Assembly: GCA_963722305.1 (NCBI GenBank)
Contig: CAVRKE010000001.1
Coordinates: 501,549-565,548 of the forward strand
Reading direction: 5' to 3'
Length of the DNA: 64,000 nucleotides
Source of the DNA: Candidatus Levyibacteriota bacterium
GTDB lineage: Bacteria; Patescibacteriota; Microgenomatia; Levybacterales; UBA12049
Position 1 is the stretch's first letter. Every line of letters begins with the position of its first letter. The notes below the pieces were generated by a model. It had not been told where the DNA came from. It worked only from the letters and a program-made list of their open reading frames with translations, and made no database searches. The translations under genes and the position numbers were made by a program. This document shows, piece after piece, positions 7,349 to 10,384 of this stretch.

Positions 7349-8191
7349 ATGGCAAAAAAATCTGTTACGGAGGTTTTAAAATATTTTCAGTTTTCCGATA
7401 AAAATAAAGTTCTAAAAAAACTGCAGACAATTATTGCCGGCGGAAAAAATAATTTGCATTTACTTTTTGATTTTGACCGGACCTTAACTGTTGGTAAAAA
7501 CAACACCGGTGAAGACTTTACTTCGTGGAATATCTTAACAAAACTTTTGCCTCCTAAGGCTTTTGCCAAACAGTACAAACTTTATCAAAAATATCGACCA
7601 ATAGAGGCATCGGGCAAATTAAGTGCCAAAGATGCAACAAGTTGGGCCAATCAGGTGTTGAAAATTATTGTTGAAAACCAGGTCAATTTGTTGGAAATGG
7701 AAAAAGACTTTTTGCAAAACACCAGCATTAGATCTCATGCTAAAAACATTTTTGATGCTTGTAATATTCTCGGAATTCCCATTGTAATTGTCTCGGCCGG
7801 AATAAAAAATGTTATTGATATTTGGTCAAAAATATTTCAGGTATCCCCTGCTTTAGTTTTAGCTGTCAAGCTAATCGCTGACACAAACGGAAAAATTATC
7901 GACTGGGACAAAAATATTATCCATGTAGGAAATAAAGGAGAACAAGGAAACGAGGAGTTGGATAAAATCAAAAATCAAAGACCGAACATTATTGCCGTTG
8001 GGGACGCCATTGAAGACGCGGATATGGTTAAGGACGATGAAAATGTCCTGCGGATAAGAATTAACGACCCAAGGATAGATGAGAAATTAAGTGAAGCAGA
8101 ACGTCTGAAGAAAACTTTTGCCAAGTTTGATTTAATGATTGACTCCGGCACTCTGGAGCCGGTTTTGAAGATTTTGGAATTATTGGAATAA
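7349..8191 (+). CDS. HAD-superfamily hydrolase, pyrimidine 5'-nucleotidase (UMPH-1/cN-III)-like
   Basis: HAD motif I FDFDRTLT, motif II VSAG, motif IV GDAIEDADM. The large cap between motifs I and II resembles the cN-III family. An extended -10 element TGcTATAAT at 7334-7342 lies 6 nt before the ATG. Confidence 0.6.
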   Translation: MAKKSVTEVLKYFQFSDKNKVLKKLQTIIAGGKNNLHLLFDFDRTLTVGKNNTGEDFTSWNILTKLLPPKAFAKQYKLYQKYRPIEASGKLSAKDATSWANQVLKIIVENQVNLLEMEKDFLQNTSIRSHAKNIFDACNILGIPIVIVSAGIKNVIDIWSKIFQVSPALVLAVKLIADTNGKIIDWDKNIIHVGNKGEQGNEELDKIKNQRPNIIAVGDAIEDADMVKDDENVLRIRINDPRIDEKLSEAERLKKTFAKFDLMIDSGTLEPVLKILELLE

Positions 8192-10384
8192 ACTATTTGA
8201 ACCAAAAATCTCTTTTATAATTTCTGCCTTTAATTTTGATGTAAGTCTTCTCCTCCTTGTTGGTTTACTCTTTGGATTTCCAAGCTCAGATATTGCCTTA
8301 CGTTTCATTTCTAGTCTTTTTTTCATCGGCATCCCCTGCAACCTAATTATTTGCTTAATAATTGAGTCACGGAGAATTGATGCCATCATGTTGGGATCAT
8401 CCGACTCGGGTAAAACTTCATTTACAATTCCTATATCTAATCCATGTTGTTCTGCTGCGGTAGACTTCATCGAAGGCATTAGTTCTTTAACTTGTTCTGC
8501 TGTAGGATTGGAAACCCTTTTTATTATTGCAGTCTGATTTCTAGGCTCAGCTACAAATATTTTGCTTTTTTTAGGCGCCCCTATAAATTCTCCGAAAGGC
8601 AATATTCCAATCATTCCGCCGCTACCGCCAACACCCCAAATATATCCTATTCCTACCCATTTATGACTATTGACTGCTTCGGTTGATTCGGCAATACTTC
8701 TTGGTTGTCCTTTTCTTTCCGCTTCTATTGTCGGATTGGCTCCTAAAGTATCAATTAACGATACCAACGGCCATTTAAATCTGTCGGCAACTTTTAACAA
8801 CCGAATTATCCGTTGGTAATCTTCCGGCTGTGGACTGGCAGGAATTTTTACTATTTCAAAGCCTCCAGGTTTTTCCGGATTGGGGATTCTTTGGTAAGAA
8901 GGCATGTTGCCGATCATTAACACTGGCTGCGGGCCAATCTTAACAATTGAGGCCACAATTGCCGGATAACGTAAGATTGTGGTTTCATAAGAAGCACCAC
9001 CGTCTTCCGGATAAATTTCGGTGTGCTCAATGTGCCCCTGGTAAAGATTGACAACGTCATTCGGATTGGGAAACATTCTGGTAATCAGTGTTTGCATATC
9101 CGGTCTTTGTGAGTTTCTGACTAGCTCGTCGTATTCCCGAAGCAACCTATCCGCCTCCGGCTCATCTGCAGGAATTTCCGGTTTTGCATCTCTAGGTTGT
9201 TCATAGAACACCCTATCAGGAGAGATAAATCCTTCCAGTTTGAAAGCATCGGCTTTGGTCTCCTCTCCTTCAGTTGGACGAAAATCAGGTTTATTTTCGT
9301 AGGTCAATCTTTGGTGGCTCGGTTTAGTTATTCTGACAAACCTTTGCAAAAAATTTAAAAGCTCTTCTTTGGTTTTGAAAACCAAATCAATTTCCCGGGG
9401 GGTTAAAGCTTGCGCTTCAACACTCTGCTCCCAACCTTCAACAGGTACTTTTGTATAAAATTCCGTTAAGTGTTTACCCGAAAAACCAAAATCATTACCT
9501 TCCAAAGCAACAATAATATCTCCAAGCGGTCCAATACTTGCCGATTCTCCGCCAAATTCCGGACCGATTAGAGCGGTTATATAAGCCCTATCTTTGGCTT
9601 GCTCTTTAAAATCGTGTACCTCCATCACTTGTTTTGGTAATTGAACTAAAGCCACGGTACCTTCATCTTGTCTTGCTCCCGCGGAGGCTAAAAAGCAAAC
9701 CAATGGACGTTCGTGTCTGCCAAGAAGTCTATCCCTAAGATTTCTGCGGCGTGCCAATTCACTAGCTCTTTTGAATTTTTCTCCCGCAACCTGTCCGTTA
9801 GAGCCCCTTTGGAAATCATAATATTTTACATACGCAACTACTTCTACCCCACCCAAATTAGCGTGTCCATAGCATGCTGATTCAGGTTTACCGGTTTTTT
9901 TCTCTTCTTCTCTAAGTCGATCAAAATATCCACGGACCCTTGAAGGAAGATGCGGCTCCACGCCGGCCGGAATATTAGCTTCAACTCTTGTCTCAGCAGA
10001 ACGCTTTAGTCCCATAATGTCCTTTTTTACTCTCATCCAACGGTCAAGTTCATCAAGATGGATATTTCTTACAAGCCAATCTGTGATTTCGACTACTCTA
10101 TCGACAACTTCCTGGCCGTTAAGTTTTGGCCTTGACTCTAACATTGTCTTTGGAAAAGTTACGTTTGGTCTCGCTGGAGTTTCCAGGGGAACATTTCCGG
10201 GCATAATTGATATTTCCGGCCCGGCTTCGGTTCGAGTAAGGCGTACTGTAGTCAATGTCCCATCCGGATTCCGAAGAAGTGCCCTGACTCGGGTAATTTT
10301 GTTAGGGTCAAAATCGGGATGTTCGGCCCTTAGCGTTGACAATATCCATTTACTTGGTTTATTTGGGCCTTGTTCTCTCGCCAT
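8180..10384 (-). CDS. Fused carboxyltransferase, AccD-like (beta) plus AccA-like (alpha) domains, with a ~190-aa unknown N-terminal extension
   Basis: The beta part [16 protein letters not shown]...[35 protein letters not shown] aligns with E. coli AccD PLICFSASGGARMQE...LTDPTMGGVSASFAMLGD..IGFAG. The alpha part SQRPD...[18 protein letters not shown]...[48 protein letters not shown]...[10 protein letters not shown] aligns with AccA. Confidence 0.75.
   Translation of the reverse strand: [734 protein letters not shown]

Follow-up and report, generated by a model that had tools for sequence, protein, structure and literature searches.

The carboxyltransferase of acetyl-CoA carboxylase (ACC) and its relatives come in several described arrangements. 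In Escherichia coli and Staphylococcus aureus, the enzyme is divided between two subunits, AccD (β), with a four-Cys Zn ribbon, and AccA (α). Canonical AccDA fusions (P0055 and P0058; P-numbers denote proteins of the homology searches and L-numbers related loci) join both on one chain of about 600–650 residues in the same β→α order, keep the CxxC...CxxC ribbon, and score 360–420 bits, above the curated cutoffs. PccB, AccD5, 12S transcarboxylase, MmdA, and GcdA have a two-domain, single-chain fold; these PCCB-type enzymes are hexamers attached to subunits carrying biotin carboxylase (BC) and biotin carboxyl carrier protein (BCCP). MdcD and MdcE (TIGR03133 and TIGR03134) are AccD and AccA homologues that work without a linked biotin carboxylase. 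Here, we analyzed a 64,000-nt stretch of a Candidatus Levyibacteriota genome (the window), in which a gene beside mreB encodes a single-chain carboxyltransferase, hereafter CT, with AccD-like and AccA-like halves and no Zn ribbon. We see about an even chance that CT is an active enzyme of a distinct Zn-ribbon-less AccDA family with a non-canonical substrate, partner, or regulation, and that its gene is a fast-evolving, exchangeable accessory gene in this lineage. A first-pass annotation had taken the host for a member of the candidate phyla radiation (CPR), in agreement with the 68–86% identity of window proteins to a Candidatus Levybacteria contig.

An AccD–AccA fusion without a Zn ribbon

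CT is encoded by a complete open reading frame (ORF):

8180–10384, minus strand: carboxyltransferase (CT) gene, complete ORF, 734 amino acids (aa), ATG start

The first-pass annotation had proposed that this protein is an AccD→AccA fusion in a single chain, and Pfam, NCBIfam, and PDB profile matches to both halves bear this out. Both Pfam families in which it had expected matches, ACCA (residues 475–701, E = 5.5e-26) and Carboxyl_trans (PF01039, E = 3.6e-8; 32.9 bits against a gathering score of 22.3), were found at significant levels, as were the NCBIfam models for accD (TIGR00515; residues 151–308, E = 6.8e-24) and accA (NF004344; residues 474–703, E = 7.9e-26). All motif strings that it had aligned with the E. 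coli subunits occur in the translation, at residues 227–242, 278–291, 425–429 (SQRPD), 520–560 (PEDYQRII...ERKGQ), and 584–593.

When a profile of four close homologues was compared with all PDB sequences, AccA chains (8UXZ_A, 2F9Y_A, and 9M70_B) and AccD chains (9M70_A, 2F9Y_B, and 8UXZ_D) took the top ranks at E values of 1e-19 to 4e-21, with PCCB-type enzymes ranking far behind. In sequence, both halves match E. coli and S. aureus AccD and AccA (PDB 2F9Y, 2F9I, and 8UXZ) best (E = 1e-17 to 4e-21), and these have in common with CT the region order, the crotonase-fold halves, both Gly-rich oxyanion motifs, DT-GA, and E556. The PCCB-type enzymes share the two-domain, single-chain fold of CT; their sequence match is weaker (E = 1e-5 to 1e-11 versus 1e-21, 14–18% identity), and nothing indicates for CT their hexameric attachment to BC–BCCP subunits. 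CT belongs to Carboxyl_trans at the superfamily level only, its sequence being nearer to AccA/AccD.

An AlphaFold2 (AF2) model of CT, built on a 56-sequence family alignment, has a mean predicted local distance difference test score (pLDDT) of 87.8 and a predicted template-modeling (TM) score of 0.85, with pLDDT above 90 across both cores. A Foldseek search of the PDB with this model returned the two-domain carboxyltransferases 1X0U, 1ON3, 2BZR, and 9YX1 as top matches (E ~1e-21), with target-normalized TM scores of 0.60–0.69. The chain can be divided as follows:

10160–10384, minus strand: residues 1 to ~75, clade-specific N-terminal extension (predicted helix 12–21, three predicted β-strands in 32–62)
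9935–10159, minus strand: residues ~76–150, family-wide N-terminal helical segment with an ESRPK motif and D-I-M-G-L-K-R, in place of the AccD Zn-ribbon region
9335–9934, minus strand: residues ~151–350, AccD-like (β) crotonase-fold half (TIGR00515 at 151–308, PDB AccD chains at 148–350)
8975–9334, minus strand: residues ~351–470, inter-domain segment corresponding to the divergent N-terminal AccA helices, with clade-specific insertions
8276–8974, minus strand: residues ~471–703, AccA-like (α) crotonase-fold half (Pfam ACCA at 475–701, PDB AccA chains at 470–685)
8183–8275, minus strand: residues 704–734, basic linker and short C-terminal helix (716–727), a clade-specific tail

The AccD-like half contains the oxyanion motif G278-G279 (EFGGESAS), in which both Gly residues are invariant in the 56 family members. 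The AccA-like half contains DTLGA (545–549), E556, and G587-S-G-G590, again in invariant columns. When matched to other family members, the accA models begin to align at profile position ~58.

The Zn ribbon of AccD was said to be missing, and residues 1–170 indeed contain no Cys and no CxxC...CxxC pattern. CT as a whole has no CxxC-N(10–25)-CxxC, and at the alignment positions of the four canonical Cys it has T/Q, R, R, and a gap. The N-terminal domain that was thought to replace the ribbon is shorter than the 190 aa first assigned to it: the AccD alignment begins at residue 143–151, leaving a non-AccD part of ~145–150 aa. Within it, residues ~76–150 have conserved columns at R85, D122, G125, and R128 (12 family members), and pLDDT is 85–98 across residues ~85–125. 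Residues 1–75 are confined to P0001–P0004 and L006, the immediate clade of the query, have pLDDT values of 46–75 in the full model, and show no Pfam match at E ≤ 0.1. A structure prediction for this region, advised by the first-pass annotation, could be obtained at low confidence: residues 1–150 modeled alone give a pLDDT of 52, with a helix and three strands. Other insertions limited to the query clade lie at about residues 100–107, 129–145, 215–225, 458–466, and 501–508.

The CT N-terminus of L006 (9654–10001) is encoded as an 87-aa ORF of its own, and the reading frame changes before the CT core begins; either the assembly contains an error here, or the clade-specific N-terminal module has really been split or has decayed. 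A likeness of the N-terminal region to a 185-aa ORF at 15385–15942 was not significant. We also considered the C-terminal helix as a membrane-targeting element and rejected it, as its hydrophobic moment of 0.53 is unexceptional for CT and the helix is not clearly amphipathic.

Distance from canonical ACC carboxyltransferases

The accD model scores CT at 84.7 bits against an equivalog cutoff of 317.45 (TIGR00515), and the accA models at 91.0 bits against 357 (NF004344) and 73.4 bits against 319.3 (TIGR00513), about a quarter of the cutoffs curated by NCBI. The two Zn-ribbon fusions used as controls, ~30% identical to CT, reach 359–419 bits and pass these cutoffs. In the same eight-way comparison, Zn-less relatives of CT score 64–133 bits against the accA/accD models.

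The losses extend beyond the ribbon. Of the 91 alignment columns with at least 90% conservation among 22 Zn-ribbon fusions, 49 are kept in the query clade and 46 in the wider Zn-less family. Both Gly-rich motifs, R238, E241, Q248, F301/G303, D545-T546, G548-A549, and E556 are kept in CT, its clade, and the family at large. The four Cys, E294, R305, G330, R338, E446, G449, D473, G522, K525, E585, S613, and E615 are lost. Relative to E. coli and S. aureus AccD and AccA, CT is thus one chain instead of two subunits, lacks the four-Cys ribbon, adds ~150 N-terminal residues and a C-terminal tail, has changed 42 of 91 canonical-invariant positions, and is fast-evolving and mobile. The retention of motifs, the model, and the column losses together suggest that the fold and the oxyanion-hole machinery are intact while the surrounding canonical surface has been largely replaced. 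Judged by these scores and the missing ribbon, CT is not a canonical ACC carboxyltransferase.

A Zn-ribbon-less AccDA family

A word-indexed homology search returned four close homologues and one distant match, and the 56-sequence family alignment gave the same five. We then used an exhaustive hidden Markov model search of 1.84 billion cluster representatives, which yielded 3313 matches at E ≤ 1e-3 and 104 at E ≤ 1e-30. The top ~55 cluster representatives (50% identity) are 580–700 aa long and colinear with the query from ~140 to ~700, including the inter-domain segment, and their profile matches form one stretch with E values of 1e-40 to 1e-129. A scan for CxxC pairs found a Zn ribbon in none of them; ribbon-bearing fusions occur only lower in the list. 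In a rough neighbor-joining (NJ) tree, which carries no support values, canonical AccDA fusions form a group separate from the Zn-less proteins. By these sequence comparisons, a separate Zn-ribbon-less AccDA family exists (P0006–P0054 and others), and CT belongs to it, having the colinear AccD–linker–AccA match, no CxxC pairs, and the shared RPK and D-x-I-G-L-x-R segment. The core catalytic motifs are invariant across the family at 25–40% overall identity. The query clade is an outlier, with 34–41% identity and altered VWGG, GPRV, and LGSGGG motifs.

Named members come from Candidatus Levybacteria/Levyibacteriota (L008, L012, and P0018 = MDO8658473.1), Candidatus Saccharibacteria (L007 and L021), many metagenome-assembled genomes of Acidimicrobiia, and cultured Ornithinimicrobium and Serinicoccus. 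The family is not CPR-specific, as the Acidimicrobiia and Ornithinimicrobium/Serinicoccus members attest. In the NJ tree, both actinobacterial groups branch as shallow clades from within deep, low-GC sequences of the CPR type. The Ornithinimicrobium/Serinicoccus CTs are 62–67% identical to the Saccharibacteria type (L007 and L089) and 43–47% identical to those of Acidimicrobiia, and genomic GC is 0.72–0.74 in the Ornithinimicrobium/Serinicoccus loci (L009–L011, L015, and L068) versus 0.49–0.52 in the Saccharibacteria-type loci. Such CT identity despite the GC gap points to horizontal transfer between Saccharibacteria and Actinobacteria.

CT is recognizably homologous to a very well-known enzyme, and automatic annotation already names it accordingly. 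Our literature search turned up nothing relevant on the Zn-less family in CPR or Saccharibacteria or on AccDA fusions; in the literature searched, the distinctness of the family, its distribution over CPR and two actinobacterial clades, its lack of partners, and its mobility appear undescribed.

Genomic position and promoter

In the window, CT lies between cell-shape genes on the minus strand and converges with a nucleotidase-like gene:

10428–11531, minus strand: mreB, encoding MreB (domain match); its 3' end borders the CT promoter
10393–10421, minus strand: σ70-type promoter TTGACA-N17-TATAAT (TTGACA 10421–10416, TATAAT 10398–10393), 8 nt from the ATG of CT
7349–8191, plus strand: HAD-IE/UMPH-1-like pyrimidine 5'-nucleotidase gene, convergent with CT and overlapping its stop by 12 nt
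6360–7163, minus strand: mreC, encoding MreC, downstream of the inserted CT and HAD pair
5953–6360, minus strand: mreD, encoding MreD (weak match, E = 3.9e-4)
4061–5836, minus strand: PBP2/mrdA gene, downstream of the inserted pair

The domain matches of the neighbors confirm the earlier observation that CT and the convergent HAD gene separate mreB from mreCD-PBP2. This position is specific to the lineage and not a family trait, since close Levybacteria and other relatives carry the gene elsewhere. The HAD gene is present in L001, L002, and L006, and a DUF3175 gene takes its place in L004. With its saturated synonymous divergence (dS), the HAD gene is best read as vertically inherited.

The promoter had also been noted in the first pass; no other site in the 6 kb scanned matches at 12/12 positions. 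No Shine-Dalgarno sequence precedes the CT ATG. Since the -10 box ends 8 nt before this ATG and a Shine-Dalgarno sequence is lacking there, the CT transcript is probably leaderless, and probably also monocistronic. Both the promoter and the 8-nt distance are kept in L002, L003, and L004, the -10 box is also found in L006, and the CPR family members L005, L012, L021, and L087 have a -10-like box 7–8 nt before the ATG. Many window genes have a TATAAT-like box ending 6–9 nt before the start (for example, those at 7349, 10384, 18536, 20164, 24466, and 44385), and a Shine-Dalgarno-like sequence is found in only 2 of 43, which suggests that operon-first genes of this genome generally give leaderless mRNAs.

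We read the contexts of twelve CPR-like loci over 8–10 kb around CT. The neighbors are:

Window, L002, L004, and L006: mreB/mreC (mreCD-PBP2)
L005: mraZ-rsmH-PBP-mur
Levybacteria L012 (2027–5392), L087 (6037–9696), and L088: NTP-transferase, CT, and PAP2 genes on one strand
L008: PEMT and IspH genes
L091: uvrA and DedA gene
Saccharibacteria-type L007 and L089: thymidine kinase and unknown genes
L092: unknown genes
L094: YchF-type GTPase gene and NUDIX gene

Envelope-related neighbors are frequent, an impression formed after the fact and not statistically secured. A comparison of 80 loci, found with a 12-sequence alignment, revealed no conserved partner, and no neighbor is conserved across clades in the actinobacterial loci; the Ornithinimicrobium gene upstream of CT matches its own genus only. 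An apparent cluster of neighbors in 27 loci ('comp2') was discarded, as spurious antisense ORFs, arising in GC-rich actinobacterial DNA, had linked its members into a chain.

Recent exchange and an insertion hotspot

The window, L002, L004, and L006 are about equidistant when compared by MreB (87–91% identity), MreC (63–67%), Wzy-TPR (72–76%), and HAD (59–64%). The CTs beside mreB in the other three genomes, by contrast, are 85, 60, and 40% identical to the window CT. The L006 CT keeps the family-typical motifs and is 39–50% identical to outgroups, versus 36–41% for the window type, which makes the window-type CT the derived form. Between the window and L002, dS is 0.48 for CT and 1.5, 1.7, and 3.4 for MreB, HAD, and Wzy, respectively, and sliding-window analysis delimits one block:

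8180–10100, minus strand: high-identity block to L002, 85–92% nucleotide identity versus 67–75% in the flanks, with an abrupt edge at the CT stop

The low dS of CT relative to its flanks and the sharp edge of the block argue for a recent exchange of CT; the block has the signature of a recombination or transfer tract between the window and L002. The ratio of nonsynonymous to synonymous rates (ω) is 0.17–0.20 for CT within a type and 0.31–0.40 between types, compared with 0.05–0.14 for the flanking genes, and intact CT ORFs of 714–735 aa are found in four lineages. By these measures, CT is under purifying selection that is weaker than that on its neighbors.

Levybacteria contig L087 has the same local synteny as the window around NusG (86% identical), NTP-transferase (74%), L1 (68%), and PAP2 (51%). 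The two CTs are 31% identical and occupy different genomic positions; in the window, the genes for NTP-transferase (31325–32284; GalU/RmlA-like) and PAP2 (30666–31325) directly abut, with no CT between them.

One additional ORF in L002 and two in L004 lie between the mreB stop and the CT promoter. The last ~22 nt of mreB (AAAGTCATCGGCGGCCTCAAGTAA) are copied before each of these inserted ORFs, which end in ...GGLK, as MreB does:

L002, 6038–6061 and 6521–6544: mreB-end repeat
L004, 1609–1632, 2609–2632, and ~3390–3411: mreB-end repeat
Window, 10428–10451: mreB-end repeat

This arrangement looks like a cassette-type insertion hotspot with target duplication at the mreB 3' end. Searches with PADLOC models gave no match at E ≤ 0.01 for CT, the HAD gene, or the cassette ORFs of L002, L004, and L006, and we dropped the idea that the variable hotspot is a defense island. 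From its divergence pattern, CT behaves in this lineage as a fast-evolving, recently exchanged accessory gene.

Possible function of CT and rival explanations

In the reading that we prefer, CT is an active, non-canonical carboxyltransferase. A single chain would unite what E. coli splits into β and α subunits, and a CT homodimer would match the α2β2 assembly of the E. coli enzyme. The AccD-like half would bind an acyl or carboxyacyl thioester, with CoA esters as the likeliest candidates, and the backbone amides of G278-G279 would stabilize its enolate. The AccA-like half, through DTLGA, E556, and G587-S-G-G590, would stabilize a second oxyanion, that of the carboxyl carrier, for example, biotin on a BCCP encoded elsewhere, and CO2 would be moved onto or off the α-carbon of the thioester. 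As roughly half of the residues invariant in canonical enzymes differ in the family, the substrate, partner, or regulation probably differs from that of canonical ACC. A Zn-ribbon-dependent binding of nucleic acids has been described for the E. coli ACC carboxyltransferase; judging from the sequence of CT, this activity cannot apply here. With its own promoter, a variable insertion hotspot at the mreB 3' end, and recent exchange between related genomes, the gene would be an accessory one, and its product a strongly derived variant with an extra N-terminal β-module, several insertions, and altered active-site-proximal motifs.

Several observations weigh against this reading. The 64 kb read of the 608-kb contig contain no BC, BCCP, or fab domain in any ORF of at least 120 aa, as reported in the first pass, nor a BirA gene, and no BC, BCCP, BirA, fab, or mdc genes lie within 8–10 kb of CT in the 12 related contexts; the biotin carrier is thus assumed, not observed. 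Neighbors differ between lineages, and none is conserved that would assign CT to a pathway. The replaced canonical residues include the charged E294, R305, R338, E446, D473, K525, E585, and E615, and in the query clade even family-invariant motifs are altered (VWGG to EFGG, GPRV to GKHL, and LGSGGG to VGGSGGM). The ω of CT exceeds that of flanking genes (0.17–0.40 versus 0.05–0.14). Given the residue and motif changes, activity may have been lost or altered.

It is rather unlikely, in our judgment, that CT is an ordinary ACC carboxyltransferase that supplies malonyl-CoA for fatty acids, with accB, accC, birA, and fab elsewhere on the 608-kb chromosome and with the fusion and Zn loss as peculiarities of the lineage. 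In its favor, AccA and AccD are the best sequence matches of CT, which retains both oxyanion motifs; accA and accD lie apart from accBC in E. coli too; and the Zn-less family persists throughout Acidimicrobiia, a group that does synthesize fatty acids. Some cultivated Patescibacteria have scattered acc and fab genes, and the cultivated patescibacterium Minisyncoccus has AccC, FabK, and FabG (PMC12281837). However, true AccDA fusions pass the equivalog cutoffs of which CT reaches about a quarter, CT has been exchanged recently, it has changed position between close relatives, and acc and fab genes are absent from the 64 kb and the 12 contexts. Canonical AccA and AccD evolve slowly, whereas CT is 40–85% identical among genomes with 87–91% identical MreB. 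De novo fatty-acid synthesis, moreover, is generally reported to be missing from CPR bacteria; PMC12281837 documents this for one cultivated case. The first-pass annotation had proposed a role other than classical malonyl-CoA synthesis, for example, as a decarboxylase or transcarboxylase. Scores far outside those of canonical AccA/AccD fit the general part of this proposal, and nothing specific to either of the two named activities was found. Its premise of a stand-alone carboxyltransferase goes further than the 64 kb covered of the 608-kb contig can support. A biotin-independent decarboxylase resembling MdcD/MdcE or a soluble malonyl-/methylmalonyl-CoA decarboxylase, feeding acetyl-/acyl-CoA metabolism without fatty-acid synthesis, strikes us as improbable. 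CT scores 16.3 bits with the MdcD model TIGR03133 (cutoff 278) and does not match the MdcE model TIGR03134, although canonical AccDA fusions do, and no mdcA, mdcC, mdcG, gcdB, or mmdB-type partner is present in any context read. The near-invariance of the AccA-like half and of GSGG, the biotin-side oxyanion hole in canonical enzymes, would also be unexpected without a second substrate. Such an enzyme would nonetheless suit the reduced CPR genome and the lack of a carboxyl carrier near any family member in the 12 contexts; CT-fold enzymes such as MdcD/E, GcdA, and MmdA can act as decarboxylases, and the malonate_beta and mmdA models match CT weakly, as they do other family members (46–60 bits).

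The frequent envelope-related neighbors (mreB/mreCD-PBP2, mraZ-rsmH-PBP-mur, NTP-transferase/PAP2, PEMT/IspH, and DedA), together with the fast evolution and the altered active-site-proximal motifs of the query clade, might instead mark a catalytically decayed or repurposed protein, such as a non-enzymatic structural or regulatory factor in cell-envelope growth. We regard this as highly improbable: the core catalytic motifs remain invariant at 25–40% overall family identity, the association was judged post hoc and envelope genes make up a large share of small CPR genomes, L007, L089, L092, and L094 have no envelope genes beside CT, and the C-terminal helix is not markedly amphipathic. A bolder version of the active-enzyme reading, possible and on the doubtful side, is that Zn-less AccDA proteins are self-sufficient carboxyltransferases or decarboxylases that would act without BC and BCCP in bacteria making no fatty acids, for example, on a scavenged or fermentation-derived carboxyacyl thioester; their genes would be mobile accessory genes passing among CPR lineages and from Saccharibacteria to their actinobacterial hosts or back, and the window variant, given its additional N-terminal module and changed active-site-proximal motifs, would be recently neofunctionalized.

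These distinctions matter for annotation. Genome-based metabolic reconstructions use AccA/AccD-type carboxyltransferases as markers for malonyl-CoA and fatty-acid synthesis, and CT relatives are already named as ACC subunits in public annotations. With a distinct Zn-less fused family that stays below the curated ACC thresholds, lacks linked partners, and moves between lineages, labels of this kind may misstate CPR lipid metabolism. If CT does work without BC and BCCP, minimal symbiotic cells would have put the carboxyltransferase fold to a new use. Cultivable Ornithinimicrobium and Serinicoccus, with homologues 62–67% identical to Saccharibacteria proteins, would make experiments feasible. The locus also illustrates clearly, for a CPR genome, both recent gene exchange and a cassette-like insertion hotspot.

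Other features of the window

Two identical, mutually inverted copies of a 1233-nt insertion sequence (IS) that carries an rve-type transposase lie at 617–1849 and 22929–21697. The first sits inside an IS1595-like element (361–2457), an intact copy of which, 99.6% identical, lies at 29409–30271. These IS elements of a small CPR genome are thus nested and have been active recently. The ribosomal protein genes rplK-rplA (35316–36639) and rplJ-rplL (44610–45844), which are normally contiguous, are split by ~8 kb (36640–44609) containing unknown ORFs, a Replic_Relax protein (42264–43115), and an IS1595 transposase (43495–44385). GC falls to 0.33 in this insert, which is probably an integrated mobile element.

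On the minus strand, a giant ORF of 3017 aa (51623–60676) occupies a region with an elevated GC content of 0.47–0.50, and a faint Kelch match is its sole Pfam signal. The window also contains three local duplications. Two peptide deformylase genes are convergent and overlap (14250–14795, plus strand; 14792–15379, minus strand). Tandem pilin-like (N_methyl) paralogues at 2504–2953 and 2955–3401 are 87% identical in DNA, and an HTH_3 gene (19169–20164) has an internal 385-nt tandem duplication (19187–19989) with 90% identity. Three conserved proteins have long extensions: NusG (34070–34861; 263 aa, domain from residue 93), L1 (35695–36639; 314 aa, domain 192–308), and L10 (44610–45452; 280 aa, domain 20–116).

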